A stretch of 32,000 nucleotides of DNA from Candidatus Saccharimonadota bacterium (GCF_002214165.1 NZ_CP019964.1:120001-152000), one strand, 5' to 3'; counted from the first letter of the stretch, positions 3,001 to 32,000 are shown. Translations and numbers: made by a program. The notes: a model not told the origin generated them from the sequence alone.

Positions 3001-6000
3001 ACAGCGGTGCAGGAGGAGCAGGAACCGGATGGGGCACCTTGACAGGAGGTAAACCACCGGGATTTGGAGGCTCTGGCGCTGCTGGAGGGTTTATAGAAAT
3101 AAAAGCCCTTAATTTCTTGAATAATGGAAAGATAGAATCAAATGGGGCAGAAGGCACACCATATAACGTTACGGGTGCAGAAGAATGCGTTCCATTTACA
3201 AGTATTTGCGCAAAGCAAATTTCGGAAGGCGAAGGAGGGGGAGGTTCTGGTGGTGAAATACTGCTGGTTGCTGAATCAAACAGTATTTCAGATGTCAATA
3301 TAGGGAATGTGGAAGCGGAAGGCGGCAATACCGATTCACTTACCTGTGGCACTAGCGGAGTTTACTATGCAGCATCTGGAAGCGGCGGCGGTGGAGGCGT
3401 GGTGATCGTAGAAGCAAGGAGCAGCGTTAAAAATGGAGAGGGTAGTAGCCTTACAAGTGGAATCAATGTAAATGGGGGTACAGCAGGGTCAGTGACAGAT
3501 CAGGACTCAACATACTGCTATAAATATGGAAATGGCAATGACGGAACGAAAGGAAACGTTTATACCTCGACACTGGCATTGATGGCCTATGTACCAAAAA
3601 TATGCAGAGGTCCTGCACCCAATGGAACAGGCCTGCCAACATTGAATGACGGATATTGCTATTTCAATGAATCTGTTGTAACAACAACCCAATACAGCGA
3701 TGGATTGTCGGGCAGCCTCTCAGTAACCGATTCAGAGCCCCCTTCAGAGTCGCCGTCATCTGCAAACGCAATTAAGAATTCTTTCAGCGATGCCGGATGG
3801 CTTATAACATGTCCAAATGCTCCCCAGCCCGGAGATGTGATAGAATATTTTATGTCTAACAAAAACTCTTATATAGGAGGGGATGAGTGCCTAACAAACA
3901 ATACCCCATCCGTGGATGGAGTCGGTCTTTCAACCTTTGTCGAATGGACAAATTCAACTCCTGCATTTGCAAATGTATCAATATACATAAGCAACGACAC
4001 TCCAACAATAAGGAATTTGGGATATATAGGAGAGGTTAATTATACAGACATACCTGCAAGCTCACCATTCTCAAATCTAAACTCAAACGAATACATAATT
4101 TCCAATGGATATAACAGCCAGTCGTATATGTTTGATTCAGTGCCTGATTCCCCAGAGGCCGGGATATGGAGCTGGGACATAAAACTGCCTGATGTGTCAT
4201 CGGTTTCCATATCAAAGCCAATATCCCATACACTAACTAACTTATACTATTACAACGAAACAGGAGATAAAGGAATAGAAGACTGCAATATAACATATGA
4301 TTACTCAGAGAATGCAACATTGAACAATATAAGGAATGCATACATACCAATACCAGGAAATGTCACTCCAAAACCTACCGTTGAATCTTACTTCAACAAT
4401 TCAGGATTTTACTGGAAAGTTCCAAGTGTCTCAAAATCAAGTGCATTCAGCAGCGGGCTTGCATATGTAAGCTGCGCCTATTATCTTTACCAAGGTTCAT
4501 CATCATCAACATTATGCCCGTCTGGGAGCTATAGTTTGGTCACAAACAAAGCTGACTTCTACTTAAACACATCAGGATACCGCACAACAAGCGATGGGAT
4601 AAGTTTGAGCCATAACCTCTTTTTATACACCAGTAGTTCCGGGAGCTATTACCTTATGTCAGTAGAAAGCAGCACAAAAGGAGGATTAGATGGTGTTTTA
4701 GGATACACCTATTATACTTTTGAAACTCCTGCAACACAGCCGTTTACAGATGTAAACGCCACTGTTCTGCCTTACTTGCTTTACAATATAAGCATGCCTG
4801 CCACGACAAGTGATGTAAGTGGAAGATCAGAACTAATGAACCTATCTTTTGACCTTTATAGCCCTTATAACTATATGACCCCCAGCGGCCATCTTGACCC
4901 GTTCAATTTAACTACCGGTTCTGGGTTCTTTGCAACATACAATGAAACAACTTCAAGCACAAGCCACCAACTGGTTCTGGCCCAGTATCCATCCAATTCA
5001 ATACACTCAAGCAGTAGTTCTACATTCGACAATCCAGATACGCAATTTACCTTATCCCTAACTCAAGCGCAGAGGACATCTAATGCGAACCTTTCAAGCT
5101 TCCTTAGCGGTGTAATATCAGCAATAGGTGGCAGTACAGTTGGAAGCTTCTTGGGTACAGGTTTCCCTAACCCCGCATTTATAGGCGAGTCGCCAGATGA
5201 CTACATCTATGCAATCAATTATACACATACAAGCGGATGGCTGGATTTCAATTCAAAGACAACCACAGATTTGGCAGAATTGCGTTACATACCTAAAGGC
5301 TATTACAACATGCTAAACATACAGCCAAGCGAGATAGCGAATGAAAGAGAAAGCAATTTGAGCAGTTGGGATAATGCATGGGCTGTTTTCTGGAATGATT
5401 CCTTATTGGAACAGGCCCACAACCTTTTCATAACTGATGTAATACCAATATCAAATTACACAACTTCATGGTTTGGTGCACTGAATGGCAATACCAATAA
5501 AGAGGTGTTCCAGTATTTTGTGCCTACATCAATGGTAACTGATTACGCAGGAGACATATTCGTAGTTGGAAAATTCACTGCTCCCAAAAGTATCTGGGGC
5601 GACATCGTAAATGTATTCGATTCGGGTGCATCCGGGCAGTTTGAACTGGCCGCTGTCTACTCAAATGGCACTGCAAAATCAGAAGTGGACCCTATAACCA
5701 GTGGCCAATCATTTGAGCCAACATCAGAGATGGCAGTAGCACCTGGAGGGCAGTACATATATCTTGCAAATTCATCCTACGGTTACATACCATTTTATTC
5801 AGGATCCTCTTTGAAGCCTGCAGGATACCAGATAGATACAAGTTATAATACATCGACAACAATGTTTAATATAACAAGCTACCTAGCACATGGAGGGCCT
5901 TTTGACAACTCTACAATAGCATCTTTCTACAAAGGAATGCCGGCAGCATATGACAATGATTCAAACCACCACATTTATGGATTAGGAGAGGCAGGCGGAC

Positions 6001-8580: not shown

Positions 8581-10458
8581 ATGGTAGATAAGATGTCTGA
8601 CAACATAAAGATAATGAGTGCAAAGCTTGATGAAGCTTCGCTTCAAGTACAAAAGACGGAACCAGAGGGGTTTTCGCAGAACATAGTTTCCAATATAAAT
8701 AACGTAAGGCCAACAGTAAATGCAGGCGAGGAAGCACAGGAGATGGTTGATCCAGTCTTGGCACCTTACCACAGGAGTATGGAAGAAATAGAGAAAATGC
8801 CAGTTATAGAAAAGACAAAGACGGTTTGCCCAGAGTGCAAGCTTATAATAGATGGAATAATATACAAAGATGGAGACAACGTAATGATCAGGAAGTACTG
8901 CCCAGAGCATGGATGGACCATGGAAAAATACTGGGAGGACTATGACATGTACATGAAGATGCGCCGTTACAACTATTTTGGGAGAGGATTTGACAACCCA
9001 AATACAATAACCGATACAAAAGGGGTTAACTGCCCATTTGACTGCGGAATGTGCGAGAGGCACAAATCACACACAGGTTTGGCAAACGTTGTTGTTACAA
9101 ACAGGTGCCACTTAAGCTGCTGGTACTGCTTCTTCTACGCAAAGGAAGGAGAATCTATATACGAGCCAAGCCTTGCAGAGATAAATAAGATATTCTTGAA
9201 CTTAAGAAGCCAGAAGCCTATACCTGCAAACGCAATACAGATTACAGGTGGAGAGCCAACCATGCATCCTCATATTATAGAAATAATAGAGCTTGCGAAA
9301 AAGGCAGGATTCGATCAGATACAGCTGAACACAACTGGAATAAACATAGGCGCAAATCCGGAGCTGGCAGTAAAGATAAGGCATGCAGGAGTGAGCACAC
9401 TTTACATGAGCTATGATGGTGTGACAAAGAGGGCGAACCCAAAGAACCATTGGGAGACACCTATGGCATTGGATGCCTGCAGAAAAGCAGGAATAGGCGT
9501 AGTTCTTGTACCTACTGTGATAAGGACAATAAACGAGAAGGAGCTTGGGCTTATGATAAACTTCGCATTGAACAACTCCGATGTAGTAAGAGCAGTAAAC
9601 TTCCAGCCTGTGTCATTGGTGGGAAGAATGCCTTCAAGGCTAAGAGAGAAGCAGCGTATAACAATACCTGGCGCAATAAAGCTTATAGAAGAGCAGACCA
9701 ATGGAGTAGTGGCAAAAGAGGACTGGTTCTCAGTACCTTATATAGGTGGAATAAACAAGTTCATAGAATCGCTTACGGGAGAATATAAGTACGATATGTC
9801 AATACATTTTGCATGTGGTGCCGGAACATACATATTCCTTGACAGCGACAATAAAATAATACCAATAACACGCTTCGTGGATGCAGCTGGCCTTGTAGAG
9901 CATCTGGAAAAAGGAATAGCAGAGATGGAAGGAAAGAGCAAGACCCAGAGAAGGATAATAGCCATGAAGACTGTTCTTGGGATGAACAAGTTCATAGACA
10001 AGTCCAAGCAGCCAAAGTCAATAAACTTTGCAAAGCTTTTGATGTCTGTGATACTGAAGCACGATTTCAGCACTCTTGGAAAACTGCAGATGAAATCAAT
10101 ATTCTTGGGGATGATGCATTTCCAGGACGAATACACCTATGATATACACAGGGTAGAGAAGTGCGATATACACTATGCAATGCCTGATGGTGAAGTGCTG
10201 CCATTCTGTACATTTAATGTATTCCCTGAGGTATACAGAGATAAAATACAGAAGCAGTACAGCGTTCCATCAAAAGAATGGGAAGTATCACATCCTGGCT
10301 GGAACTATGCAAAGGACAAATACATGAGGAATATCAAGGAATTAGAGGCAAGCCCGGCTTATAGGAAGGCATATGGAGAAATGACAGACTACTTTGCACT
10401 TCCAGTAAACGGTGGCAAGCATGTTCAGGGTTTTGCAAACGAAGCCCTGAAAGAGTGA
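8581..10458 (+). CDS. tes: Radical SAM enzyme of the MJ0619 / tetraether lipid synthase (Tes, GDGT-MAS) family.
   Basis: N-terminal rubredoxin/Zn-ribbon-like CPEC...CPEHG (8827-8909). Auxiliary cluster motif CPFDCGMCERHKSHT. Radical SAM CHLSCWYC (9106-9129). Also ITGGEPT, NFQPVSLVGR and RITIPGAIKLIEEQTNG, which match my recollection of this family. There is an N-terminal extension of about 75 aa relative to MJ0619, so an internal start is possible. Confidence 0.65.
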   Translation: MVDKMSDNIKIMSAKLDEASLQVQKTEPEGFSQNIVSNINNVRPTVNAGEEAQEMVDPVLAPYHRSMEEIEKMPVIEKTKTVCPECKLIIDGIIYKDGDNVMIRKYCPEHGWTMEKYWEDYDMYMKMRRYNYFGRGFDNPNTITDTKGVNCPFDCGMCERHKSHTGLANVVVTNRCHLSCWYCFFYAKEGESIYEPSLAEINKIFLNLRSQKPIPANAIQITGGEPTMHPHIIEIIELAKKAGFDQIQLNTTGINIGANPELAVKIRHAGVSTLYMSYDGVTKRANPKNHWETPMALDACRKAGIGVVLVPTVIRTINEKELGLMINFALNNSDVVRAVNFQPVSLVGRMPSRLREKQRITIPGAIKLIEEQTNGVVAKEDWFSVPYIGGINKFIESLTGEYKYDMSIHFACGAGTYIFLDSDNKIIPITRFVDAAGLVEHLEKGIAEMEGKSKTQRRIIAMKTVLGMNKFIDKSKQPKSINFAKLLMSVILKHDFSTLGKLQMKSIFLGMMHFQDEYTYDIHRVEKCDIHYAMPDGEVLPFCTFNVFPEVYRDKIQKQYSVPSKEWEVSHPGWNYAKDKYMRNIKELEASPAYRKAYGEMTDYFALPVNGGKHVQGFANEALKE

Positions 10459-10463
10459 GGTGA
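10457..10463 (+). promoter_or_regulatory. Shine-Dalgarno sequence GAGGTGA for the downstream 206-aa gene, overlapping the tes-like stop codon.
   Basis: In tGAGGTGActtgaaATG, the TGA stop at 10456-10458 is embedded in the SD. The SD lies 6 nt from ATG 10470 and matches the canonical archaeal/bacterial anti-SD complement GGAGGTGA. Confidence 0.6.
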
Positions 10464-10469
10464 CTTGAA

Positions 10470-11090
10470 ATGGACAGGCATTCCAAAATTGTTTTGACAA
10501 ACGAGTATCAGGAGGACCTTAAGAAAAATAAGGATGTTACACAAGGAGACCTTGACAAGCAGTATATTATCGAGGAAGGGAACAAGTTCCGTGTGCCCTA
10601 CAGGATGGTTAGGATGGTAACATTCAAAAATGTCGTAAAAGAAGGCGAATTCAGGGACCAGCCACATGCGGCAAGGCTTCAATACAGGCTGATGGAGAAG
10701 GATTCAATATTGAAGGCCCGTGTAAATTTCATAAAGAACACTATAACAATAATGTACAACCCAAAAAATGCCGACAACCTGAAGGATAAGATAAGCCTAG
10801 AAGAAATAGTCGATTTCCTGAAAACCCAAAATGTCAATGTAAATGCAGAAAATGCGGAAGATGTAGATTTTGATTATGTAAAGGACTTCTATTCTTATGC
10901 GTTCAACCCTCCATCAATAAGAGAGCACCCTCCATATGGATATACAGTGGATGAATGGAAGGAGCTCAAGGCAACATACCAGAAAAAGCTGGAAGAGGGG
11001 AAGGAGAAGAGCTGGAACAAGTTCCTTGAATTCCAGAAGAACTACGAAGCTTTGCATCCAGAAATAAACTGGGAAGAAGAGGAGAAGTAA
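10470..11090 (+). CDS. Hypothetical cysteine-free 206-aa protein translationally coupled to the tes-like gene. It may have a central ferredoxin/HMA-like fold and has an acidic C-terminus.
   Basis: Strong SD and an 11-nt gap after tes. The central segment LMEKDSILKARVNFIKNTITIMYNPKNADNLKDKISLEEIVDFLKTQNVNV resembles an HMA-type beta-alpha-beta-beta-alpha-beta pattern but lacks the CxxC metal site. The protein ends NWEEEEK. Confidence 0.7.
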   Translation: MDRHSKIVLTNEYQEDLKKNKDVTQGDLDKQYIIEEGNKFRVPYRMVRMVTFKNVVKEGEFRDQPHAARLQYRLMEKDSILKARVNFIKNTITIMYNPKNADNLKDKISLEEIVDFLKTQNVNVNAENAEDVDFDYVKDFYSYAFNPPSIREHPPYGYTVDEWKELKATYQKKLEEGKEKSWNKFLEFQKNYEALHPEINWEEEEK

Positions 11091-11154
11091 CATTTCTCTT
11101 CTTTGTCCGTCTAATTTTATCTACTGTTTCTTAAATTAGAAATTAAGTTAGAAA

Positions 11155-12750
11155 TTAATAATCTAATTTTTTTATTCTCAATTCCAATGCAGATACCGGC
11201 TCCAGCAATGAAAAATTAAGCAATACCTCAGGATTTATCTCTCCCATAATGCCTTTTTTTATGCCGTCTATATATATATCGGCAGTCCTGCCCTCTATAA
11301 ATGCAGGGTCTTTCGATTCTTTTAGCTCAAGGTTTAAACCAAGGTAATTGCAAAATGCCTCCAAATCCGCTTTTACATCATTGAAATTTACCTTCGCCCC
11401 CTCTGCTACAATGGCAATATTCAAATACTCACTCACTTTGCCTTTCTCTACCCTATACACATTACCTATCTCAAAAAGCTTTTGGGGCATAGGCTGGTCA
11501 GCGGATGTCTTAAGGTTCATCATTAGATTAGGCAGCAGTTTAGTACGCACAATGCCAAATGTCGAAGTCTTGGAGCTAAGCAACGAAACGGATCCAGGAT
11601 CATCCTGAAGCATGTATTCAAATTCAACCTGCCTGTTGGTGAGGTAAAAGTTCAATGCCTCAGAATAACCAAGTCCTACCAAAAGCCCGGAAATATCATT
11701 CTTAAATTCTGTAAGCGTGTCTAGGCTTCCATAACCATATACCCCAGAGATTTCCTTAGGAGTAATGTTATTATATCCATAAGCTATAGCCATATCCTCT
11801 ACAATATCTATCTTACCGAATACATCCGTCCTATAAGGGGGTATAACGATTGTTGCCGAACTTGAATTGCTGCTTTTTACTAGATAACCCGATCTTGAAA
11901 TCAAATCCAGGCATCTTTCGCTTTTTTCATCTAATCCTATCCTTGAATTGAAGTCCTTAAAATGCAATGCGACCTTCCTTCCCTTTAGGTCTATTGAGAC
12001 AAAAGAACTCTTGTTCTGGGTCATATGCACTTTCACAGGATGTATTGAAGCTCCTATATCAATCAACGACGAAGCTATAATCCTTGCAGTATTCTGCACT
12101 GCAGTTTCATCGCTGCCATTAATATCTATAAGGATGTTTCGTGTCGAAGTTCCTACAGAGGTTTCATCGGAGTTTATTACCGGCACAAGCGACAGCGTCT
12201 TTGATTTGTCCTTCAATATTGGATATCTCCCTTCAATGCTTTCAAAAATGGAGGAATATCCTTCTTTGTCGCCCTCTTTTACGAATTCCGAGAACCTGGC
12301 CGCTTTCCCATACCTCAATGGGGTAAACTCCTTATCATCAGATAAATTATAAAACAGAGGGAATACAATTTTGTCCAGGTTGTGAATGCCTAATGCTACC
12401 TTTTTGCGTTTTCTCCCATAAGTATCGGTAAGTTTCTCCGTAAAATTTATCAAGTACTCAAGGCCATTTCCAGACAGGTCCACATTTTTAGCAGCAAATG
12501 CAATGCCATAGGGGCGAAGGGATCTGAATTCCGGGCTAATGTAAAGGTCACCCTCAAAATCACCTATAGCCGAATCATAAGACCTTGGTTTTACAGTTCC
12601 TAAATGTAATCTTACCTCCCTCATAAAGTTATTGAAATAAAGCAGTTCTGGCCTATTTGGGGTAATATCAACAACTGTGCTGGTATCGTTTGAATCCTCC
12701 AAGCTCATTCCAAGCTCGGATATCTGTGATTTGAAAACATCCAGGTCCAT
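11155..12750 (-). CDS. pheT: Phenylalanine--tRNA ligase beta subunit (archaeal type).
   Basis: The 531-aa ORF lies directly downstream of pheS. It carries the archaeal PheT-like N-terminal ...ITPNRPELL... motif and has B3/4-B5-like length and organisation. The true start is probably upstream (see finding at 12748-12813). Confidence 0.85.
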   Translation of the reverse strand: MDLDVFKSQISELGMSLEDSNDTSTVVDITPNRPELLYFNNFMREVRLHLGTVKPRSYDSAIGDFEGDLYISPEFRSLRPYGIAFAAKNVDLSGNGLEYLINFTEKLTDTYGRKRKKVALGIHNLDKIVFPLFYNLSDDKEFTPLRYGKAARFSEFVKEGDKEGYSSIFESIEGRYPILKDKSKTLSLVPVINSDETSVGTSTRNILIDINGSDETAVQNTARIIASSLIDIGASIHPVKVHMTQNKSSFVSIDLKGRKVALHFKDFNSRIGLDEKSERCLDLISRSGYLVKSSNSSSATIVIPPYRTDVFGKIDIVEDMAIAYGYNNITPKEISGVYGYGSLDTLTEFKNDISGLLVGLGYSEALNFYLTNRQVEFEYMLQDDPGSVSLLSSKTSTFGIVRTKLLPNLMMNLKTSADQPMPQKLFEIGNVYRVEKGKVSEYLNIAIVAEGAKVNFNDVKADLEAFCNYLGLNLELKESKDPAFIEGRTADIYIDGIKKGIMGEINPEVLLNFSLLEPVSALELRIKKLDY

Positions 12751-14268: not shown

Positions 14269-15045
14269 TTACCTCAATTTTCTAAGGGCTAATAGGACAC
14301 CCAAAACCACCACAACTATAATGACGATAGCTAAATATATAGGTAGTGATTTAGAGTTGTAAGTATTGTAAAGGAACTCATTGATCTCAAACCCTAAGCT
14401 TGTATCAAGATCGTATTGGAAAGTAAATTTGGACAGTGGTTCCTGGTCGTACCATGAAAATTCTGTCACGTTTTTGTAATTGTCCGAGAATCCTGTGGAA
14501 GGTGAATCTGGCAGAGGGTAAATGGAGACTATTTTAGCCCCGCTTGGCGGAATTATTGTAAGTGTAGTATTTGGGTATAAATATTCTCCACTAAGAGAAT
14601 GCCCAAAATTAAATACAGAATCATTAAACGTATAACGTATAACTCTAGGGGCTACCCTATCACTTAATTGTACTCCTTTAACATAATATGTCATATAAAG
14701 ATTTGCATATCCTCCACCATAATCTGTAGGTACAAGAGGCCCAGGAAGGAACTTAAATCCATATACCCCAGAATGCGAATTCAATATGTGCTGCGTAAGT
14801 TCTGGCCCAATTAAGCCCTGCCATGTGCTTAAGCTAAGGTTTAACGCGTCCCTGTCTGTTTCATATTGTTTTACGGAATAATTGCTTACATAAACTGTAA
14901 GCACCTCATTCACTTGTGCAGTATTCGATGTATTAAGAATTACTGTGGTATTAAGATGTACTACGGAGTAGCCTGCATTTGCATTTCCCGCAAGGAGGAG
15001 TGCAAATATAACCGCAGCTATAAATATAGTTAAATGCTTATACAT
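14269..15045 (-). CDS. Secreted, C-terminally membrane-anchored hypothetical glycoprotein (258 aa).
   Basis: Sec-type signal peptide MYKHLTIFIAAVIFALLLAGNANA. C-terminal TM plus basic tail LPIYLAIVIIVVVVLGVLLALRKLR. Several N-x-S/T sequons. The stop lies 5 nt upstream of the pheS start. Confidence 0.75.
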   Translation of the reverse strand: MYKHLTIFIAAVIFALLLAGNANAGYSVVHLNTTVILNTSNTAQVNEVLTVYVSNYSVKQYETDRDALNLSLSTWQGLIGPELTQHILNSHSGVYGFKFLPGPLVPTDYGGGYANLYMTYYVKGVQLSDRVAPRVIRYTFNDSVFNFGHSLSGEYLYPNTTLTIIPPSGAKIVSIYPLPDSPSTGFSDNYKNVTEFSWYDQEPLSKFTFQYDLDTSLGFEINEFLYNTYNSKSLPIYLAIVIIVVVVLGVLLALRKLR

Positions 15046-22926: not shown

Positions 22927-25365
22927 ATGACTTATATGTTGGAGTTGCTCGTGATAGTTCCGTTGGTATTCAGTTTCAATGCAGTACTGCCACTCATACC
23001 TTTGATCATAATAATAATACTTATAGCTGCCGCTGCCGGAATGACAAGAGGCTTCAGCATATTTGCATTTTTCGGCCTAGACGCATTAATGGGAGTTACC
23101 CAAGGAACTGGCGGAGGCAGGGCAGGAAAGGGAGTAAGAAGCGTAAATTACAACAGGTCTGCAGGTCCAAGGTCAAATGCCTCAAAGCGTGTACCAAGAG
23201 GCCTAGTTACTAATAAACTTAAAAAACGTAAACTAACCAAGCAGGATACAAAGATAAGGGCTATGAAAGAAGCAATGGGTAAAAATTATGATCCAAAATG
23301 GAGAACTAAAAGAGGTTCTGTAAGAGAAGGAAATAAGGAACTAAAAAAGACAACGAAAGAATATAATGAATTCCTTAGCAATTTAAAAAAGACTCCAAGT
23401 AAGATGGCCCAGACAGGCTCAAGCACTAAATATCCAAATACAACAGGAGCAATGAAATTTGCGACATCAGTCTTAGGGTCCTCTTTTATACTTTCGCAGA
23501 ATAATTCAAATAAAACTCAGGCGGCGTTAGCAAAAGACTATGTAAAGAACAAGTCAAAAGAATACTACAAGGAGGTGAAGGAGCAGGAAAGGCAGCAAAG
23601 GCCATTAGCGGTTCTTAAAAGAAGGAAGGAAGCCCGCATGAGAGATCTAAAGCTGTACAAAGAGAGGCTTGAAGAGCTTTACAAAGCCCAGAACCAGAAG
23701 ATACCTCCTTCAACCAAATTAAAAAGCAACGGACTAACGCAGGATCAAATTGACGAGGTCAACAAGAGGATGGGCAAAGCCACATTTTTTGCAAAGCACT
23801 CCTTCCTGGGTACTGGAGCGGAATTTTACAGGACTGCAGCCAATACTATTCTCAACACACAAGACAAGATGCTTACGCAGCTATACGGAAAAGACTACGA
23901 TTCAAAAGCAAAAGGGCTAATAAATATGGTGGCAACAGGCAATGTTGTCAAAAGTTCACTTAGCCAGAAAGACCAGGAACTATATGACTTGTACAAAACC
24001 TATGACCTAGACAAAGGGGGGACAAGTGCAAATGTCATCAATCATATGTATGTAGGAGGCAACTATAATCCCGATACGAAAACCCTCAGTCAGCAGGTAA
24101 GAGAAGACATCAAGCACAATATGTTTCATCCGTTTAAGCAAGCAGCAATGGAGATAGGGTATAAGGATAAACGTGGATCGGTCGATTACAAAAATTATTA
24201 CAAGGCAACTTACGGGCAGGATCTGCCATCAGGGATAATGACGTCAAACAAGTATTACTTCGACTTGGTAAAGACCATTAAGGCGGACCACACCCCACCC
24301 CCACTTCCAATAATCAACACAAACAAGCCACCAAATGTTATCAGAGTGATGAATACCGATGACAATGGAAATCCTATGTACCGCAAGAATGGCAACAGAG
24401 TGGAGACTTTCCTAGTTGAAAACCACACCGAGGATGGCGGTGTCAGCTACGGATTTGCCAACAAGGAACAAATAGAATCATTGCGCAAGTACGAACTGGA
24501 ACACGGGAATAAGTATCTGGAAGAGAAGTACAAGAACGATAAAAGATCATGGCACGACATAGTATATGGGATAGGAGAAAAGAACAGCAATGTAAGCTCC
24601 GAAGCAGAGTACGACAAGGAAGGAAGCCGCAAACTCAAGACAGGGAATTACAATGACAGGAGGGAGCGCGATATCGATAATGGCACCACATTTAACTACA
24701 ATAAGGCCACTTATGAAAATGCAGGAAGAATGGACATGTATAATATAAAGGAGAATTTATTGAAAAAGAACGAAGATGATGAGAATATACTGAAAAGCCA
24801 TACAGTGCTGTCAATAAACAAGGATAAAAACAATGACCTGATTACCACAGATAATGATTCAAGCACGCCCCCAACTCCAAATGCAATGCAGAAATATAAA
24901 CCTACTTATCCATCAAATGACACAAAGGGGGCAACCGATAATAATACCGGGATATCTCAATATTCCCAAGAACCAAACGCTCAAACAACACAGGTAATGC
25001 TTTATACAAACATCATCCCGTTCTCCAATTCAGCTGGATCCGAATCAGATAGCTATTATTCTAACAATGGTTACTCCCATGATTACCACTCACACACTTA
25101 TTACTCAAATAATTACTCCTCTTCTTCATCGTCATCTTCAAACAGCACTTCACAGAGCATAAACACATCCCAGGATCCCTACTCAATATTAGGGATTGAA
25201 AGAGATTCATCCTATGAAGAAATAAGGAGGGCTTACCATAAATTAGCTCTAAAGTACCATCCAGATGTCCATTCAGGTAGGAGAGAGGAAGCAGAAGAAA
25301 AATTCAAGAAAATAGCAAATGCATACGAAGAAGCGATATACAAAAATGAGCATAAAGCGCAGTAA
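22927..25365 (+). CDS. Membrane-anchored 812-aa protein with a C-terminal J domain (DnaJ-like, HPD motif).
   Basis: N-terminal hydrophobic helices LELLVIVPLVFSFNAVLPLIPLIIIIILIAAAAG and FSIFAFFGLDALMG. A long K/N/Y-rich middle and an S/Y/N low-complexity tract follow. The C-terminal J domain is DPYSILGIERDSSYEEIRRAYHKLALKYHPDVH...KFKKIANAYEEA (25174-25362, HPD at 25258-25266). Confidence 0.8.
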   Translation: MTYMLELLVIVPLVFSFNAVLPLIPLIIIIILIAAAAGMTRGFSIFAFFGLDALMGVTQGTGGGRAGKGVRSVNYNRSAGPRSNASKRVPRGLVTNKLKKRKLTKQDTKIRAMKEAMGKNYDPKWRTKRGSVREGNKELKKTTKEYNEFLSNLKKTPSKMAQTGSSTKYPNTTGAMKFATSVLGSSFILSQNNSNKTQAALAKDYVKNKSKEYYKEVKEQERQQRPLAVLKRRKEARMRDLKLYKERLEELYKAQNQKIPPSTKLKSNGLTQDQIDEVNKRMGKATFFAKHSFLGTGAEFYRTAANTILNTQDKMLTQLYGKDYDSKAKGLINMVATGNVVKSSLSQKDQELYDLYKTYDLDKGGTSANVINHMYVGGNYNPDTKTLSQQVREDIKHNMFHPFKQAAMEIGYKDKRGSVDYKNYYKATYGQDLPSGIMTSNKYYFDLVKTIKADHTPPPLPIINTNKPPNVIRVMNTDDNGNPMYRKNGNRVETFLVENHTEDGGVSYGFANKEQIESLRKYELEHGNKYLEEKYKNDKRSWHDIVYGIGEKNSNVSSEAEYDKEGSRKLKTGNYNDRRERDIDNGTTFNYNKATYENAGRMDMYNIKENLLKKNEDDENILKSHTVLSINKDKNNDLITTDNDSSTPPTPNAMQKYKPTYPSNDTKGATDNNTGISQYSQEPNAQTTQVMLYTNIIPFSNSAGSESDSYYSNNGYSHDYHSHTYYSNNYSSSSSSSSNSTSQSINTSQDPYSILGIERDSSYEEIRRAYHKLALKYHPDVHSGRREEAEEKFKKIANAYEEAIYKNEHKAQ

Positions 25366-25655: not shown

Positions 25656-26369
25656 ATGGTATATAGATATAATATACCTGTAAAAGAAGAGATAAAAGAG
25701 ATTGTTATTGCCGATTTAGTGCTGACAATAGCATTCACTTTATCATTAATGGGAGGTCTGTTCAGCAGATCCCCCAATTTCGTAGAACGTTTTGCGATCT
25801 ATCTTCCAGGTATATTTATAATAGTGACACTGACGTTTGTGCTTCACGAGCTAATGCACCGCCAGGTTGCAAAGCATTTCGGTGCAGTTGCAAGCTTCCA
25901 ATACTCAGTCAATGGCTTGTTAATTACCTTAGCTACGGGGGTATTTGGATTCATATTCGGGATTCCCGGTGCCACTGTAATCTATACAAATAATTTTACA
26001 CGTAAAGAAGAGGGCTTAGTATCAATTGCAGGGCCATTGATGAACTTTGCCGTGTTCGTACTGTTTTTTGCAATATTCATAATGTCACCTTATATAAACA
26101 ATTCCTACGTGACTTTAATAGCAGCATTAGGAATGTTCATAAGTATACTTTTAGCCTTTTTCAATATGCTCCCTATAATGCCTTTAGACGGGGCGAAGGT
26201 GCTTAATTGGAATAAAAAGGTTTACTTTAGTTCAATGGTCATAATATTCATACTGATGGCAGTTTCATACCTAATACTTACCGGAAGCATACTAGACATG
26301 TTTATGGAAGTTGCGATAATGATAGTGCTGGCTTCATTCTTTTCGTTATTTTACAGAAGAATTATATGA
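25656..26369 (+). CDS. Site-2 protease family (peptidase M50) intramembrane zinc metalloprotease, minimal form without PDZ.
   Basis: HELMH (HExxH) sits in a TM helix, followed later by FNMLPIMPLDG (the NxxPxxxLDG motif). The protein is polytopic and hydrophobic, 237 aa. SD-like AAGGAG lies about 8 nt upstream. Confidence 0.8.
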   Translation: MVYRYNIPVKEEIKEIVIADLVLTIAFTLSLMGGLFSRSPNFVERFAIYLPGIFIIVTLTFVLHELMHRQVAKHFGAVASFQYSVNGLLITLATGVFGFIFGIPGATVIYTNNFTRKEEGLVSIAGPLMNFAVFVLFFAIFIMSPYINNSYVTLIAALGMFISILLAFFNMLPIMPLDGAKVLNWNKKVYFSSMVIIFILMAVSYLILTGSILDMFMEVAIMIVLASFFSLFYRRII

Positions 26370-26406: not shown

Positions 26407-26415
26407 TTTTAAATA
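26407..26415 (+). promoter_or_regulatory. TATA-like element (TTTTAAATA) for the type IV filament-like operon, with leaderless geometry.
   Basis: Centred about 24 nt upstream of ATG 26435, with no SD. It is the only sizeable non-coding spacer (65 nt) ahead of five tightly packed genes. Confidence 0.45.
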
Positions 26416-26434
26416 CATTAATTGAGAAATTATA

Positions 26435-27769
26435 ATGTGTTTAGTTATGGTTGAAAATCAATCCTCCAAAGCATCTCCGAGTGCAAACAATGCCAATGCC
26501 CCCAACCTGAACGAAGCTAAAACCAATATCGACAGGATGCTGGCGCTTCTCCAGAGCAAAGGCAGAATGGATGTCAATACGCTTGCATTATCATTGGACA
26601 CTCCTGCCTCCGTTATAGATGACTGGGCAAAGATATTGGAATCAGCGAATATGGTAAAAATATCTTACGAATTGGGAAAAATGTACATAGAGCCTTTCAG
26701 CAATGTAGCAAATACCCAGAACATCGACAATATCATAAGCAATAAGCGAGAGCAGTTAAAAAGAGATGTCGATGTCCAATATATACTACTTGAAAAACTG
26801 GTAAACTCCGCAAATTCCACTTCTGCAGATATAAACAGTGCAGAATTCAAATTCTCAAAAGAATACCCACAAATAAGGAAAACAATAAAAAAGCTGAATA
26901 AGACCCTGGCAGAGCTTAATAAATACAACCTGAAAGTAGAAGGATTGAACAAAAACACGTCGGGAGAATACACCAAAGTAAATGCGGATTACCAAAAGCT
27001 GGTTTCTAATATAAATGGGCTGTCTAACGGGCCATTAGAAAATGATCTAAAAACCCTAAATATAAAATTATCAAAAACCCTCGGGGACATACTGTCTAAG
27101 AAGGCTGATTTAGAAAATATTAGGAAGGACAACCTTAAGGAGATAGAAGATATAAAAAGAGATCTCCAATTCCATTATAAAGATGCCTTAACCTCAATAA
27201 ATTCATTCAGCAAATCACTTAATGACCAAGTATTAAAAGCCAGGCAGGAGATAAGTAAGAACATAACTAGTATAAATAAAGATAAAGCAAACTTAAATAC
27301 TGCAATAAAAAGTTATAATACAATGATGTCGCTTTACAACAAAACATCTGGAAAAGTAGATTCTAAAAAAGTAGAGGAAATATATAATTCAAATAAGGCA
27401 AAGATAGATGAGTATACAAACGAGTTCAATAAAGCTTATGACGAAGTATCGGGAAAATTAAATGATATAACAAAGCACTTTGGCGATTTAGGCAATCTAA
27501 ACTCCCAGATACTTAACTTGATTACTGTACTTAATGATTCAAAAACGAGAGTAAAAGATTTAAGAAAGGAGATTAATGATATAAAAAGAGAGGTAGATAC
27601 ATTATCAATAAAAAAGAATGTGTCTAGGGAGGATATTTTGAAGTATGCTGAGATAATAGAAAAACACAGCAAGAAAACCGAAAGTGAAATAAATAACCTT
27701 TCAGACAAAATAAAAACTTCATCTGATGCCCTCTCAAAATCGTTAACTTCGGATGATACTAATGAGTGA
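26435..27769 (+). CDS. Hypothetical protein with an N-terminal winged-helix-like domain plus about 350 aa of predicted coiled coil. First gene of the secretion-ATPase operon.
   Basis: 444 aa. MLALLQSKGRMDVNTLALSLDTPASVIDDWAKILESANMVKISYELGKMYIEP looks like a wHTH. The rest is heptad-like K/N/L/I/E-rich sequence. The 3' end overlaps the ATPase start. Confidence 0.75.
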   Translation: MCLVMVENQSSKASPSANNANAPNLNEAKTNIDRMLALLQSKGRMDVNTLALSLDTPASVIDDWAKILESANMVKISYELGKMYIEPFSNVANTQNIDNIISNKREQLKRDVDVQYILLEKLVNSANSTSADINSAEFKFSKEYPQIRKTIKKLNKTLAELNKYNLKVEGLNKNTSGEYTKVNADYQKLVSNINGLSNGPLENDLKTLNIKLSKTLGDILSKKADLENIRKDNLKEIEDIKRDLQFHYKDALTSINSFSKSLNDQVLKARQEISKNITSINKDKANLNTAIKSYNTMMSLYNKTSGKVDSKKVEEIYNSNKAKIDEYTNEFNKAYDEVSGKLNDITKHFGDLGNLNSQILNLITVLNDSKTRVKDLRKEINDIKREVDTLSIKKNVSREDILKYAEIIEKHSKKTESEINNLSDKIKTSSDALSKSLTSDDTNE

Positions 27770-29438
27770 TTTAGAACCAAAATCAATTATTGATGCCGGT
27801 GATTTAAGGGGTATTGATTCCAGCGGTGCGGATAATATTGAGCCTACGGCAGAGCCAAACCCAAGTCCATCCGTTAACGAAAACCCTAAAAATGAAGATA
27901 ACAATGCCAAGGTCTCTGAAAATAAAGGTAATGAAGGTTCCACACCAACCCAGCAAACAATTCAAGAGTATGATTTAGTTGCAAACGGGTTGGAAGCGCA
28001 CATAACAATATACAAGACTGTTGAGGAGTTCGTTCCAATATATGGAGTCAGTTTCAAGGGGGTGAGCATGGCAACCCGTCTTCTGCTTCTTTCAATGAGG
28101 CGTCCCCTTCTTACTTCGGTTCCTGTAGATTTATCTAAGATAAACGATAAAGATTATGTATCTGATCTGAACAAAAGGTACCTTGCCGCAGCAGAAGTTC
28201 TTATAGACAGGTATCTGCCAAGAATTGAAGAGGGAATCAAAAAGGTTTTATTGTCTTATATACTTAACATGATGTTAGGTTTAGGAGAATTAGAAGTGCC
28301 ATTATCGGACGATTCATTAGAAGAAATTACAGTAAATGGCGCAAATTACAATATCTGGGTATTCCATAAAAAGCTTGGCTGGTTAAAGACTTCACTTAAG
28401 CCAACCAGCGAGGATTCAATATACAATCAAGCAGAGCAGATAGGAAGGAGGGTGGGAAGAGAAATAAATAACCTTACCCCTCTCATGGACGCTGAACTTG
28501 AGGATGGATCAAGAGTTAACGGTACACTATTCCCAATATCACAGTCGGGAAATACTCTTACTATAAGAAAGTTCTCGAAAAATCCTTGGACTATGCCTGC
28601 CTTAATAAAGAACGGATCACTAGACGCCAATTTAGCTTCATTGGTCTGGCTTTGCATACAGAACGAGATAAGTGTATTGATATCTGGGGGAACTGCAAGT
28701 GGTAAAACGAGCTTTTTGAACGCAATGAGCATATTCTTCCCAAGCAATAGAAGGGTTATATCTGTAGAAGATACACGAGAACTTGCCCTGCCGAACTTCT
28801 TGCAATGGGTACCTATGATAACAAGAGAGCCAAACCCTGAAGGAAAGGGAGCAGTCAGCATGTACGATCTGATGATAAACTCATTGAGGCAAAGACCTGA
28901 TATAATAGTCGTCGGAGAAATAAGAGCGGCTGAAGATGCCCAAACCTTGTTCGAAGCAATACACACAGGTCACTCTGTATACGGTACGCTTCACGCAGAT
29001 AATGTGCAGGATACTATTATAAGAATGACAAATCCTCCTATAAACACCCCAAAAATATCAATGAACGCCTTGGGTGTTATAATAACAGTATTCAGGCATA
29101 GGGCAAAAGGGATAAGAAGAGTACTTGAATTTGGTGAACTATTGAGGACAGGAGATGCAAACGTGCTTTACAGATGGAATATAAGGACAGATACATTCAC
29201 AAAGGTAAGTGAGATGACAAGGCTTCAAGAGACCCTGAACTTATATACAGGGATGACCAAGAGCGAAATAGATTCTGATGTAAAGGAGAAATCAGATGTA
29301 TTAAGCTGGATGGCTGCAAATAATATAACTAACGTAGACGATGCAGGTTTTGTAATTGCTAACTACTATAATAACCGAGAAAGGGTTTTGGATATAGTAA
29401 AAGAGAATGCGAAATTTTCAAGAGATAAATTCAAATGA
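27753..29438 (+). CDS. Type II/IV secretion system ATPase (FlaI/ArlI-, PilB-, TadA/EpdL-like hexameric motor).
   Basis: Walker A GGTASGKTS (about 28684-28710). Asp box SVEDTRELALP. Walker B DIIVVGEIR. His box HTGHSVYGTLHA. There is a low-complexity N-terminal extension of about 70 aa. The alternative start ATG 27762 overlaps the upstream stop by 8 nt. Confidence 0.85.
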   Translation: MILMSDLEPKSIIDAGDLRGIDSSGADNIEPTAEPNPSPSVNENPKNEDNNAKVSENKGNEGSTPTQQTIQEYDLVANGLEAHITIYKTVEEFVPIYGVSFKGVSMATRLLLLSMRRPLLTSVPVDLSKINDKDYVSDLNKRYLAAAEVLIDRYLPRIEEGIKKVLLSYILNMMLGLGELEVPLSDDSLEEITVNGANYNIWVFHKKLGWLKTSLKPTSEDSIYNQAEQIGRRVGREINNLTPLMDAELEDGSRVNGTLFPISQSGNTLTIRKFSKNPWTMPALIKNGSLDANLASLVWLCIQNEISVLISGGTASGKTSFLNAMSIFFPSNRRVISVEDTRELALPNFLQWVPMITREPNPEGKGAVSMYDLMINSLRQRPDIIVVGEIRAAEDAQTLFEAIHTGHSVYGTLHADNVQDTIIRMTNPPINTPKISMNALGVIITVFRHRAKGIRRVLEFGELLRTGDANVLYRWNIRTDTFTKVSEMTRLQETLNLYTGMTKSEIDSDVKEKSDVLSWMAANNITNVDDAGFVIANYYNNRERVLDIVKENAKFSRDKFK

Positions 29439-30136
29439 TAAAGGTTGGTATAATGGATGAAGATGTGGATTACGATAAAATCAAGGACTTCATAAATAAT
29501 ATATACGGGAGTTCATCACAGAACCCTACATCCGAATCAACCCCAATAACAATAAACATTTCAGAGGTAGTGGATAATCCAGAATCAAATCAAAATAGGA
29601 TGTCCTATGCAGATGTAATAAAAATGATAAACTCATTGGATTATGGATTATTCAGGAATAACAGGATAACGAATTTATATAATCCCATTGCACCCAGCAA
29701 ATACATAATAGGTGAGCAGACTCAGAGGACAAGGGAGACAACTGCAACCCCAGTGGTGAATATAAGTTCTAGTGCGCAACAGAATCAGGTTGTCAGCGAG
29801 GCTCAGGCCAATCCAGCAAAAGGTATAAAGCTTAAGGACTTGGTTAAAAAAATAAATTACGATGATTTGGTGTTGCCAAGCTTGCCAATCTCTGATCAGA
29901 TATCCGAAATTAATAGAATAAATGACGGATTAAGAAATAACATATTTGACCATGACCATTTAATAATAGTAATGCAAGAGATATATGGGATAAAGAGGAT
30001 TTCCGACAAGGAGAAAAGCGACTTGGGAAGCAAGATGTCAAAGCTTGGTGATGCAGAGAAGGCACTATTAAGCGCAAGAGATGACAAAATAAGCGAGGGG
30101 ATTAACCTTATAGATAAAATGGTAAACGGTGGATGA
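29435..30136 (+). CDS. Hypothetical soluble 233-aa protein between the ATPase and the platform genes.
   Basis: ATGA start/stop overlaps at both ends. No TM segment, no cysteine motif and no family recognisable by eye. The alternative start is ATG 29453. Confidence 0.65.
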   Translation: MIKVGIMDEDVDYDKIKDFINNIYGSSSQNPTSESTPITINISEVVDNPESNQNRMSYADVIKMINSLDYGLFRNNRITNLYNPIAPSKYIIGEQTQRTRETTATPVVNISSSAQQNQVVSEAQANPAKGIKLKDLVKKINYDDLVLPSLPISDQISEINRINDGLRNNIFDHDHLIIVMQEIYGIKRISDKEKSDLGSKMSKLGDAEKALLSARDDKISEGINLIDKMVNGG

Positions 30137-31155
30137 TATTGTATTACAAGGATAACAACAAAGGCAATGCGCAAAATAACGATCCTAATACAAATGCCAC
30201 TCAAATGCCGAACCCCACGCAATCAAATTCATACCAGGTACCCGCAGGAGGTATTGGAGGCACTCCTGAAGATGAATCAAGAAGAAGGGTGCGCAGGGAT
30301 ACAGCATCATTCCAGAGGCCGAGCCGCATAGATCTTTACCTGCAAGGAGTAGCTGCAAAGCATAAAGGGCTGGAACAGTCTTTGAAGGAGCAAGGAATAA
30401 ATGAAAGTGTTACATCTTTCCTAAAACGTATGCTTTTTGCATCAGTTATTGTAGCAGTTTCAATAGGTGTGGTCGGGTTTATACTATTCTTGCATCTAGG
30501 ACTTGTAATTGCATTTGCGGCTTTAGTTGGTATCGTTGTAGGAGTGGCAGCTTTTCAGTTCTCATTTAAGGCCTTCATAAACTATCCAAGCAAGAAGAAG
30601 GTTTCAAATGGGAAGGACATAGAAAGGAACATCCTTTTTGCATCAAGAGACCTTATAATATCACTCCGTTCTGGAATGCCATTATTCAATGCAATGGTAT
30701 CTATAAGTTCTGGATATGGAGCAGCAAGCAGGGAGTTTGCCCATGTAGTAGAGAAAGTTCAGTTCGGTGAATCCTTAGAACAAGCAATAGATGATACAGC
30801 ATCCGAAAGCAAGAGTGCATCTTTCAGGAAGCTCATGATTCAGGCTTCTGTGAGCATAAAAGCAGGTTCAAATATAGTTGACTCTTTGCAGGAGATAGTA
30901 GACGATCTTTCAAGGGAAAGGGTAATACAGCTGCATGCTTATGGGCAAAAGCTGAATGCAATAGCAATGTTCTATATGCTTTTCGGAGTCATACTCCCGA
31001 GCATGGGTATAGCAGTTGTCACTATATTGACAACATTCATAGCACTGATAGTAGTAACCCCAGAACTGCTTTACGGGGTATTGGTAGGTATTATTTTCCT
31101 GCAGGTGGTCTTCTTGCAGATGATAAGGAGTTCAAGGCCTATATTTACAATGTGA
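30133..31155 (+). CDS. Type IV filament inner-membrane platform protein with a single T2SSF domain (TadB/TadC-, EpdJ/K-, half-FlaJ-like).
   Basis: 340 aa. An N-terminal disordered N/Q/P-rich region is followed by 2 TM helices. A cytoplasmic T2SSF-like block (ILFASRDLIISLRSGMPLFNAMVSIS...FGESLEQAIDD...ASVSIKAGSNIVDSLQEIVDDL) and C-terminal TM helices follow. Confidence 0.75.
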   Translation: MILYYKDNNKGNAQNNDPNTNATQMPNPTQSNSYQVPAGGIGGTPEDESRRRVRRDTASFQRPSRIDLYLQGVAAKHKGLEQSLKEQGINESVTSFLKRMLFASVIVAVSIGVVGFILFLHLGLVIAFAALVGIVVGVAAFQFSFKAFINYPSKKKVSNGKDIERNILFASRDLIISLRSGMPLFNAMVSISSGYGAASREFAHVVEKVQFGESLEQAIDDTASESKSASFRKLMIQASVSIKAGSNIVDSLQEIVDDLSRERVIQLHAYGQKLNAIAMFYMLFGVILPSMGIAVVTILTTFIALIVVTPELLYGVLVGIIFLQVVFLQMIRSSRPIFTM

Positions 31156-31159
31156 TACA

Positions 31160-32000
31160 ATGGAGTTTAGATTTGAGCGTTTGGTTTCAAGGAACATCTC
31201 TTACAAGCTGTCGCACTTGCTAGACCTTGCAGGGCTCAAAATGACTGTAAACAAACTCCTGTCATACATGGTAATAGGATCTATACTGCTTATGGTTATA
31301 GTTCCATTTGTGCTGTACTTCATGAAAATAAATATAATATTGGCCATATTATCTGTTGTCATAGCTCCTGCAGTGTACTTGGTAGTAATATACTTTATAT
31401 TGAACTACCTTATAGATAAGAGGAAGTCAATCATGGAGAATTTCCTGCCTGACTATCTGCAGATAACTGCCGCAAACCTAAGAAGCGGTGTGTCTTTGGA
31501 TAGGGCAATGCTGATGGCAGCAAGGCCTGAGTTTGGGCAGTTGAGCCTGGATGTCAAGGAGATGAACAAGAAGATATATGGTGGCGAAACACTTGATGCT
31601 GCCCTTACCGAGCTTGCAAACAGTTATGATTCAACTACATTGAAGCATTCCGTTCGTATGGTATTGGAGGCATATAGGTATGGAGGTGCAATGTCTGACT
31701 TGATTTCACAGATGTCAAAGGACCTTAAAAACCAGCAGCTTACAATGAAAGAGATTTCGGGGCAGCTGCTTATGTACAGCATATTCATAGTATTCGCAGG
31801 GCTTATAGCAGCTCCCGCCATGTATGGCCTTACAAGCCAGATGATTGTTGTTACTGATACAGTATGGAAGGGTATACTGGCAGCCAATCCTGGTGGATTG
31901 CCAACTACAGGGGTATCTTTTCTAAAGCCAAGCCCTCCAAAGATATCCCCACAGACATATCACACGTTCTCATTGATATCAATAATATTTATTACGGGTT
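31160..32000 (+). CDS. Second single-T2SSF-domain platform protein (partial; runs off the window end).
   Basis: Absent from the ORF track because no stop lies in the window. Hand translation from ATG 31160 gives MEFRFERLVSRNISYKLSHLLDLAGLKMTVNKLLSYMVIGSILLMVIVPFVLYF...FLPDYLQITAANLRSGVSLDRAMLMAARPEFGQLSLDVKEMNKKIYGGETLDAALTELA...YGGAMSDLISQMSKDLKNQ...IFIVFAGLIAAPAMYGL. This is the T2SSF pattern with flanking TMs. The gene starts 4 nt after the previous stop. Confidence 0.7.
   Translation, partial: MEFRFERLVSRNISYKLSHLLDLAGLKMTVNKLLSYMVIGSILLMVIVPFVLYFMKINIILAILSVVIAPAVYLVVIYFILNYLIDKRKSIMENFLPDYLQITAANLRSGVSLDRAMLMAARPEFGQLSLDVKEMNKKIYGGETLDAALTELANSYDSTTLKHSVRMVLEAYRYGGAMSDLISQMSKDLKNQQLTMKEISGQLLMYSIFIVFAGLIAAPAMYGLTSQMIVVTDTVWKGILAANPGGLPTTGVSFLKPSPPKISPQTYHTFSLISIIFITG

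Follow-up and report, generated by a model that had tools for sequence, protein, structure and literature searches.

Organization of the operon

The subject of this study is the assembly (motor/platform) operon of an Epd/Tad-like type IV pilus, located at the end of a 32,000-nt stretch of NZ_CP019964.1 (positions 120001–152000). This whole stretch is further referred to as the window, and positions are counted from its first nucleotide. The source is Candidatus Mancarchaeum acidiphilum Mia14 (DPANN, Micrarchaeota), an ARMAN-2-type micrarchaeote and a symbiont of Cuniculiplasma divulgatum. The core of the encoded machine is ordinary and already published. The new part is two conserved, unannotated components, proteins of 444 and 233 amino acids (aa), in a lineage-specific variant of a known machine.

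The operon comprises five genes on the plus strand. The first (26435–27769) encodes the 444-aa protein, in which AlphaFold2 places a winged helix before four long helices. It is followed by the genes of a 561-aa type IV filament ATPase with a Pfam T2SSE match (27753–29438) and of a soluble 233-aa protein, further called p233, whose open reading frame (ORF) at 29435–30136 has no family match. The last two genes encode platform proteins with Pfam T2SSF matches, namely the 340-aa TadB/TadC/EpdJ-K-like platform protein 1 (30133–31155) and platform protein 2, which starts at 31160 and runs past the window end at 32000. The junctions are, in order, a 17-nt overlap (8 nt if counted from the second ATG), two 4-nt overlaps and a 4-nt gap. 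The sequence of p233 matches Mia14_0171 of Candidatus Mancarchaeum acidiphilum at 100% identity; by gene counting, the 444-aa protein, the ATPase and the two platform proteins are MIA14_0169, 0170, 0172 and 0173, respectively. Platform protein 1 is also encoded on NCBI contig DAHXFV010000001.1 (243 kb), where the sequence was extended past the window. Platform protein 2 has 280 of its 328 aa in the window, and its gene ends at window-equivalent position 32146 (11028–12014 in locus L001; loci are denoted by such numbers throughout). The 444-aa protein, the ATPase and p233 contain no hydrophobic or transmembrane segment and are therefore read as cytoplasmic.

The preliminary description of the window had listed the same ORFs with exactly these junctions. 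It had recognised a FlaI/PilB/TadA-type ATPase, two proteins with a single T2SSF domain each, a winged helix-turn-helix with a long coiled coil in the first product and a soluble protein of unrecognised family in the third, and all of these assignments are borne out by the domain matches, models and searches reported below. It had also placed a TATA-like box upstream of the first gene. The box is present, one base off the position given there (26407): the octamer TTTAAATA occupies 26408–26415 on the plus strand, 19 nt before the first ATG. It is the sole copy in the window against 4.4 expected by chance, so that its mere presence is not significant. The same box is found at −27/−28 in the orthologous loci L004, L005 and L008, and most of the distant loci have A/T-rich boxes at −26 to −38. 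Hence TTTAAATA is likely the archaeal TATA box of the operon, its promoter activity being predicted from position and conservation. Given the 19-nt distance to the ATG, a leaderless mRNA or one with a very short leader is implied.

According to Golyshina et al. 2017 (PMC5498576), Mia14 has two type IV pilus systems and no archaellum genes. One of the two systems, MIA14_0170–0177, was put in the "Methanococci/Methanothermobacteria/Thermococci group", which corresponds to the Epd-type clade 1 in Makarova et al. 2016. Supplementary Table 2 of PMC5498576 names MIA14_0170 (ATPase of the CpaF family), 0172 and 0173 (TadC) and 0176, and includes neither 0171, that is, p233, nor 0169, the 444-aa protein. 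The preliminary description had seen here a candidate for an undescribed system; with the locus already published as a clade 1 type IV pilus, this was overstated.

ATPase and split platform

The ATPase matches Pfam T2SSE with E = 1.8e-35. Its catalytic set, as read from the sequence, is intact: Walker A GGTASGKT (residues 312–319), the Asp box RVISVEDTRE (334–343), Walker B DIIVVGE (383–389) and the His box HTGHSVYGTLHA (404–415). The best solved relatives are Archaeoglobus fulgidus GspE (2OAP, 221 bits), FlaI (4II7, 202 bits) and CpaF (162 bits).

The platform proteins contain one T2SSF domain each (Pfam E = 1.2e-15 for platform protein 1 and 9.9e-14 for platform protein 2). Both are multi-transmembrane, with three or more hydrophobic segments in platform protein 1, and they are paralogous to each other (23% identity, E = 2e-8). 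A platform encoded by two genes is the expected trait of clade 1, or system 1, and it is present here as well as in 31/31 of the distant loci described below. Homology identifies these products, together with the predicted class-III-signal substrates encoded downstream, as a type IV filament core composed of a secretion ATPase with an apparently intact catalytic site and a TadB/TadC-like split platform.

Pilin-like genes downstream of the operon

A scan of the window ORFs for class III signals returned antisense or internal artefacts only, and in this sense the earlier statement that no pilin is in view is true. Pilins seemed absent because the window stops early. Extension of the contig past position 32000, which had been suggested as a check, yielded four class-III-signal genes directly downstream, encoding proteins of 598, 614, 196 and 893 aa. 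They lie on the minus strand at window-equivalent positions 32344–39197 (L001 12212–19065), convergent to the motor operon, with a gap of 197 nt between the gene of platform protein 2 and the first of them. Given the overlaps of −10, −4 and −47 nt, the four genes may form a second operon that faces the motor operon.

Each of the four proteins has a single N-terminal hydrophobic segment. Their N-termini read KKG/ILLTLL, KKG/FIFTLDA, A/QFWSIDV and S/QIAIEF (the slash marks the predicted cleavage site) and are kept in distant orthologues. By the [KR][GAS]/hydrophobic motif all four are class III (prepilin-type) signal subunits with predicted cleavage. Three of the four contain one to three Laminin_G_3 domains each, with E from 8e-18 to 4e-46. 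DUF2341 itself was not matched by these three large LamG proteins in the Pfam scan; Laminin_G_3 and DUF2341 both belong to the concanavalin-like superfamily.

Neither a prepilin peptidase nor a KaiC-like FlaH is among the domain matches in the window, as the preliminary description had it, and no A24/GxGD prepilin peptidase is encoded in the window or within 10 kb downstream. According to PMC5498576, the prepilin peptidase of Mia14 is MIA14_0570, encoded at another place in the genome.

Conservation of the gene block

Using the p233 motif, we recovered 45 metagenomic loci, which were annotated by ORF calling and phmmer; in the counts below the denominators are loci with enough sequence. The ATPase gene is directly upstream of the p233 gene in 40/40 loci. 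The gene of the first platform protein (TadC1) directly follows p233 in 40 of 41 loci, and that of the second (TadC2) follows TadC1 in all 31. A winged-helix/coil gene precedes the ATPase gene in 28/31 loci, mostly overlapping it or lying within 10 nt, and convergent LamG/pilin genes are present in 20 of 23. The order [M50 protease]-wH/coil-ATPase-p233-TadC-TadC-convergent LamG pilins is thus kept, with junctions in the block mostly from −11 to +13 nt.

None of the genes that flank the operon in Mia14 (TopA, a methyltransferase, a DnaJ protein, HSP20, GrpE) occurs in the 45 distant loci. As the flanks differ there, the block is a module and not residual synteny. In the closest relatives (L004–L011) the whole topoisomerase-to-DnaK region is syntenic, and gene order in them proves little because the entire neighborhood is kept.

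The bracketed member of the block is a 237-aa M50/site-2-protease-like membrane metalloprotease, encoded in Mia14 on the plus strand at 25656–26369 (MIA14_0168 by gene counting; Pfam Peptidase_M50, E = 2.8e-10). The protein has HELMH and NMLPxxPLDG motifs and about 6–8 hydrophobic segments. An M50 gene is nearby in 23/23 loci: in 16 it is adjacent on the same strand, and in 7 it is within about 2 kb on the other strand. Its membership of the pilus machine is uncertain; a functional link, such as processing of a pilus component or of a regulator, is possible in view of this proximity. TrkA-like genes are inserted in the 7 loci with the opposite-strand M50 gene. In one hot-spring clade (L036, L039–L041, L044, L045, L054) the insertion, at 1284–3217 on the plus strand in L036, consists of three TrkA-like NAD-binding/membrane genes located between the inverted M50 gene and the pilus operon.

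A scan of a genome collection with the ATPase alignment, for which the search patterns were too specific, gave three loci. One of them, L012, from a metagenome-assembled genome labelled Woesearchaeota, encodes an ATPase that is 47% identical to that of Mia14 and two platform proteins. Its ATPase start is overlapped by an 80-aa winged-helix-only gene (6787–7029, plus strand), a homologue of the 444-aa N-terminus (E = 2e-7), and two 160-aa class III pilins (RRAQ/AALEYL) are encoded after the platform genes at 10425–11469. There is no p233 in the L012 locus, and both the coil and p233 were seen only in p233-containing loci. The presence of the winged helix alone in this single distant relative suggests that the winged-helix partner is older than the coil and p233.

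The 233-aa protein

p233 consists of three parts. In the 60-sequence alignment A4 the N-terminal part (residues ~13–81) contains two copies of the helix motif Yx[DE]L[IV]xxIxx[IV]E around an [IV]D[ILV]S motif. It is followed by a variable, P/Q-rich disordered linker of ~40 to 180 residues among family members, and by a C-terminal three-helix bundle (residues ~130–231, nt 29822–30127) with the motif KDLVLPxLSxxDQISELERIIEGLxExVFDxEHxxIVxQEVYGL...LRDQRL. Residues L147, P148, E158, E182 and R215 are invariant in the same alignment. AlphaFold2 monomer models of p233 and of the 444-aa protein were built on shallow three-sequence alignments. In the p233 model, residues 130–231 form the three-helix bundle with a predicted local distance difference test score (pLDDT) of 73–92, and residues 1–124 are unstructured (pLDDT below 50).

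No Pfam, NCBIfam or PDB sequence match of p233 was found in family scans that also included the ten longest members as possible domain fusions; the longest members simply have longer P/Q linkers. The Foldseek search of the model against PDB produced no match with E < 0.8. Word-indexed homologue searches gave three close lineages each for p233 and the 444-aa protein, and the wider p233 family came up by the exhaustive HMMER profile search only. This search yielded 199 cluster representatives at E ≤ 1e-3, 78 of them at E ≤ 1e-10, nearly all 200–250 aa long and annotated solely as "hypothetical protein". p233 is the founder of an unnamed family.

The 444-aa protein

The AlphaFold2 model of the 444-aa protein starts with a winged helix at residues 25–88 (nt 26507–26698; helices 25–41 and 58–70, hairpin 74–87), followed by four long helices, or a coiled coil, at 94–438 (nt 26714–27748), ~345 residues in total. 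Foldseek found no PDB match of the model with E < 0.2. Above-threshold Pfam or NCBIfam matches are absent, and the protein itself gives sub-threshold coiled-coil matches only. The profile of the winged-helix family has its best solved match in FeoC/YhgG (1XN7, E = 2.5e-4; also 4AWX_B and 2K02), a weak similarity over ~40 residues. The model and the profile together support the assignment of the N-terminus as a putative winged helix.

Orthologues of the 444-aa protein are 399–478 aa long, plus two members with C-terminal repeat extensions, and the length of the coil is conserved. Averaged over pairs of 20 non-redundant orthologues, identity is 50% for the winged helix and 20% for the helical region. 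The net charge of the winged-helix domain ranges from −4 to 0, and over the first half of the recognition helix conserved D/E stand in place of R/K/T. When the winged-helix segment was searched by itself, one truncated copy at a contig end turned up. In L004 (6554–8338, plus strand), the orthologue from a 51%-identical lineage has C-terminal tandem "ANSTEVSQPQISDTQENNN" repeats; this gene is interrupted by an assembly gap (a run of X) and for that reason is probably uncalled in its record.

The preliminary description had named two observations that would speak against its view of the two extra proteins, namely a confident match to an accessory family of type IV pili or archaella and a gene order not shared by relatives. 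Neither was made, since no described accessory family was matched in Pfam, NCBIfam, PDB sequences or PDB folds and the five-gene order is strongly conserved.

Proposed mechanism and alternative explanations

The region is probably the motor/platform operon of an Epd-like ("clade 1" or "system 1") pilus, with the 444-aa protein and p233 as lineage-specific cytoplasmic scaffold or tether subunits. We assign the two proteins to the motor with moderate confidence because of the tight coupling of their genes to the core, the lack of transmembrane segments and strict co-occurrence; the specific roles suggested for them are predictions from sequence and models. A hexameric FlaI/TadA-family ATPase would dock on the platform made of two single-domain TadB/TadC-like paralogues and drive polymerization of the class-III-signal subunits, which would be cleaved by a FlaK-type peptidase encoded elsewhere. 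The acidic conserved winged helix of the 444-aa protein would dock on a partner, of which the ATPase is the likeliest since the two genes overlap, and the ~345-residue helical region would oligomerize into a scaffold or spacer beneath the platform. This docking-plus-scaffold role is favored by the acidic conserved winged helix, by a coil that is conserved in length and free in sequence, and by the FeoC precedent: the winged helix of FeoC is a protein-binding one, which docks on the FeoB GTPase. p233 would be a flexible tether between the ATPase and either the platform or the scaffold, a role favored by its two conserved end modules and the variable disordered linker between them. The LamG proteins and the 196-aa pilin-like protein would most likely form a priming or tip adhesin complex contacting the host (Cuniculiplasma). 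As for the major pilin, it is probably encoded separately by a stand-alone gene, the arrangement known from other clade 1 systems.

Several observations weigh against this interpretation. The raw PDB scores put the ATPase closer to A. fulgidus GspE and FlaI than to CpaF, and such scores do not discriminate between these types; its membership in clade 1 (arCOG01819, CpaF-like) is as reported by Golyshina et al. (PMC5498576). Split platforms occur in subsystems 4A and 4B too and hence are not unique to clade 1. A major pilin was not identified. Confidence in both models is low, with mean pLDDT of 57 for p233 and 60 for the 444-aa protein. How widely the two families are distributed is judged from metagenome contigs, and one member is labelled Marsarchaeota. 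Finally, genuine DNA-binding regulators (MarR, Lrp, TFE, MntR) are among the matches of the winged-helix profile too, and it is common for a regulator gene to be the first gene of its own operon.

The last two points lead to the main rival explanation, in which the 444-aa protein is a MarR/TrmB-like winged helix-turn-helix factor, oligomeric via its coil, that autoregulates the operon from 26408–26415 and is not structural. The PDB matches of the winged-helix profile next to FeoC, with E to 0.02, are MarR-type YusO (1.7e-3), LrpA, AF2008, TFE and MntR, and sub-threshold Pfam matches to MarR and TrmB occur in 10/19 and 9/19 members, respectively (best E = 8e-4, below the gathering scores). The gene is the first in the operon, beside the conserved promoter region; the 80-aa winged-helix-only form in L012 resembles a small regulator; and many unrelated regulators are reported in archaeal pilus loci by Makarova et al. 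However, a winged helix with a net acidic charge and D/E rather than R/K/T in the recognition helix fits DNA binding poorly, a length-conserved coil of ~345 residues is unusual for a simple repressor, and overlap with the ATPase gene, or a distance of at most 10 nt from it, in most loci suggests stoichiometric co-production. The best solved relative, FeoC, is itself a protein-binding winged helix. On balance we consider an autoregulator unlikely.

A bolder reading, which we regard as quite unlikely, unites the M50 protease, the winged-helix/coil protein, the ATPase, p233 and the split platform in a so far unseen basal body, both cytoplasmic and membrane-embedded and specific to Micrarchaeota, that makes the Epd-like pilus a host-contact organelle in these symbionts. 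The winged-helix/coil protein would then couple the motor to nucleic acid, or to the cell pole or host-contact site. If true, the machine would serve to exchange DNA or macromolecules with the host rather than for simple adhesion.

It is improbable that the machine serves primarily for DNA uptake or transfer, with the pilus capturing host DNA and the winged-helix/coil protein, perhaps together with p233, handling it in the cytoplasm. The winged-helix fold is compatible with nucleic-acid binding, and clade 1 Epd pili are needed for natural transformation in Methanococcus maripaludis (PMC10133366). At the same time, no nuclease, helicase, ComEC-like channel or OB-fold gene is present at the locus, adhesion is the function suggested by the three LamG-domain proteins, and the acidity of the winged helix also speaks against this explanation.

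That the genes of the 444-aa protein and p233 are mere passengers without a pilus role, adjacent by inherited synteny in a narrow lineage, is highly improbable: adjacency is indeed uninformative in L004–L011, which are syntenic from topoisomerase to DnaK, but in the 45 distant loci, whose flanks differ, both genes stay exactly in place and overlap or nearly abut their neighbors, no p233 member in the loci recovered lay outside the pilus context, and a winged-helix homologue precedes the ATPase gene even at 47% ATPase identity (L012).

Comparison with known systems

Clade 1, or "system 1" of Sivabalasarma & Albers 2026, occurs in methanogens, Thermococcales and DPANN and comprises one ATPase, a two-gene platform, large adhesin-like pilins, many minor pilins and stand-alone major pilins. 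The Epd pilus of M. maripaludis functions in adhesion and is required for natural transformation (PMC10133366). The Mia14 system resembles it in having a FlaI/TadA-family ATPase (EpdL in M. maripaludis) and two co-transcribed single-domain platform paralogues (EpdJ/EpdK). Several class-III-signal minor pilins are a further common feature, the large adhesin-like pilins may be comparable through a concanavalin-type domain (DUF2341 in Epd, Laminin_G_3 here), and stand-alone major pilins are expected. Unlike in Epd, no EppA peptidase, FleN/MinD ATPase (window and 10 kb downstream) or small Epd pilin is encoded at the Mia14 locus; according to Makarova et al., EppA and FleN/MinD are frequent in clade 1 loci, not obligatory. 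The other differences are the convergent orientation of the pilin genes relative to the motor operon, the M50 protease as a conserved neighbor, and the winged-helix/coil protein and p233, which are absent from the clade 1 lists of the 2016 census and from the text of the 2026 survey.

Bacterial Tad/Flp systems share with Mia14 a homologous ATPase and a platform split into two paralogues. We nevertheless rejected a bacterial Tad system, as the ATPase scores 173 bits against the TadA model TIGR03819 (cutoff 373; CpaF structures, 162 bits) and the locus lacks TadZ/CpaE, the RcpA secretin, TadD/G, the Flp pilin and TadV. The Mia14 subunits differ also by archaeal class III signals and LamG domains. 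An archaellum was rejected on the scores against the NCBIfam FlaI and FlaJ models, which are 256 and 27.7 bits, respectively, at a cutoff of 550 in both cases, and because genes for ArlH, ArlF, ArlG and archaellins are missing from the locus. Bindosome membership was likewise rejected on model scores and missing partners.

In the archaellum, the ArlX/FlaX ring, ArlCDE and ArlH are lineage-specific soluble or coiled-coil proteins encoded beside the ATPase that form a cytoplasmic scaffold around ArlI/ArlJ. The two Mia14 proteins resemble this scaffold in idea, given their soluble or coiled-coil nature and the position of their genes beside the ATPase gene, and not in sequence or fold, where no match was found; moreover, the 444-aa protein lacks an N-terminal membrane anchor such as that of ArlX. 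As far as its description allows comparison, arCOG07564 from halobacterial subclade 4F loci is also a cytoplasmic coiled-coil protein of a pilus locus, presumed to be a regulatory subunit, yet it comes from another pilus clade and lineage and no winged-helix domain is reported for it. FeoC/YhgG compares with the N-terminus of the 444-aa protein in being a small winged helix whose gene lies beside that of a membrane-machine NTPase (FeoB, which it binds). The iron-transport system itself is unrelated, and the weak ~40-residue similarity says nothing on function alone. UpsX was set aside as a functional precedent, since its published phenotype has been corrected, and counts here only as another unexplained upstream accessory gene.

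Other genes in the region

The window starts with the gene of a 2805-aa protein (81–8498, plus strand) that has an N-terminal hydrophobic anchor and three InlB B-repeat (Flg_new_2) domains. It is followed by a 625-aa radical SAM protein with a HMPTM-type N-terminal zinc ribbon (8581–10458, plus strand) and by two ORFs without Pfam matches, of 206 aa (10470–11090, plus strand) and 258 aa (14269–15045, minus strand). The radical SAM gene and these two ORFs sit among genes for PheRS alpha/beta, a class I tRNA synthetase and ribosomal proteins S15 and S3Ae.

Closer to the operon, positions 22927–25365 (plus strand) encode an 812-aa protein that begins with a transmembrane region and ends in a J domain (DnaJ, E = 1.4e-17), the long stretch between them being of low complexity and rich in N, S and K. 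Its NCBIfam match to TopJ of the mycoplasma terminal organelle comes through the J domain only, and the gene is found in close Mancarchaeum-like relatives, not in the distant loci. Past the pilin block, window-equivalent positions 39279–41155 (L001 19147–21023) encode HSP20, a 145-aa winged helix-turn-helix protein (HTH_24/DDRGK-like), GrpE and DnaK. This heat-shock cluster is common to the close relatives only.

Implications

DPANN archaea such as Mancarchaeum live attached to a host, with which they exchange material. Cryo-electron tomography has revealed filaments on Micrarchaeota, to which no genes are assigned (PMC11329633); among candidate loci for such a filament in this group, the operon described here is the best conserved. 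Defining the two unnamed families and the protease neighbor, all missing from the lists of archaeal pilus components consulted here, would add parts to the type IV filament toolkit, and MIA14_0168, 0169 and 0171 become targets for the study of symbiont–host contact in the co-culture of Mia14 and Cuniculiplasma.

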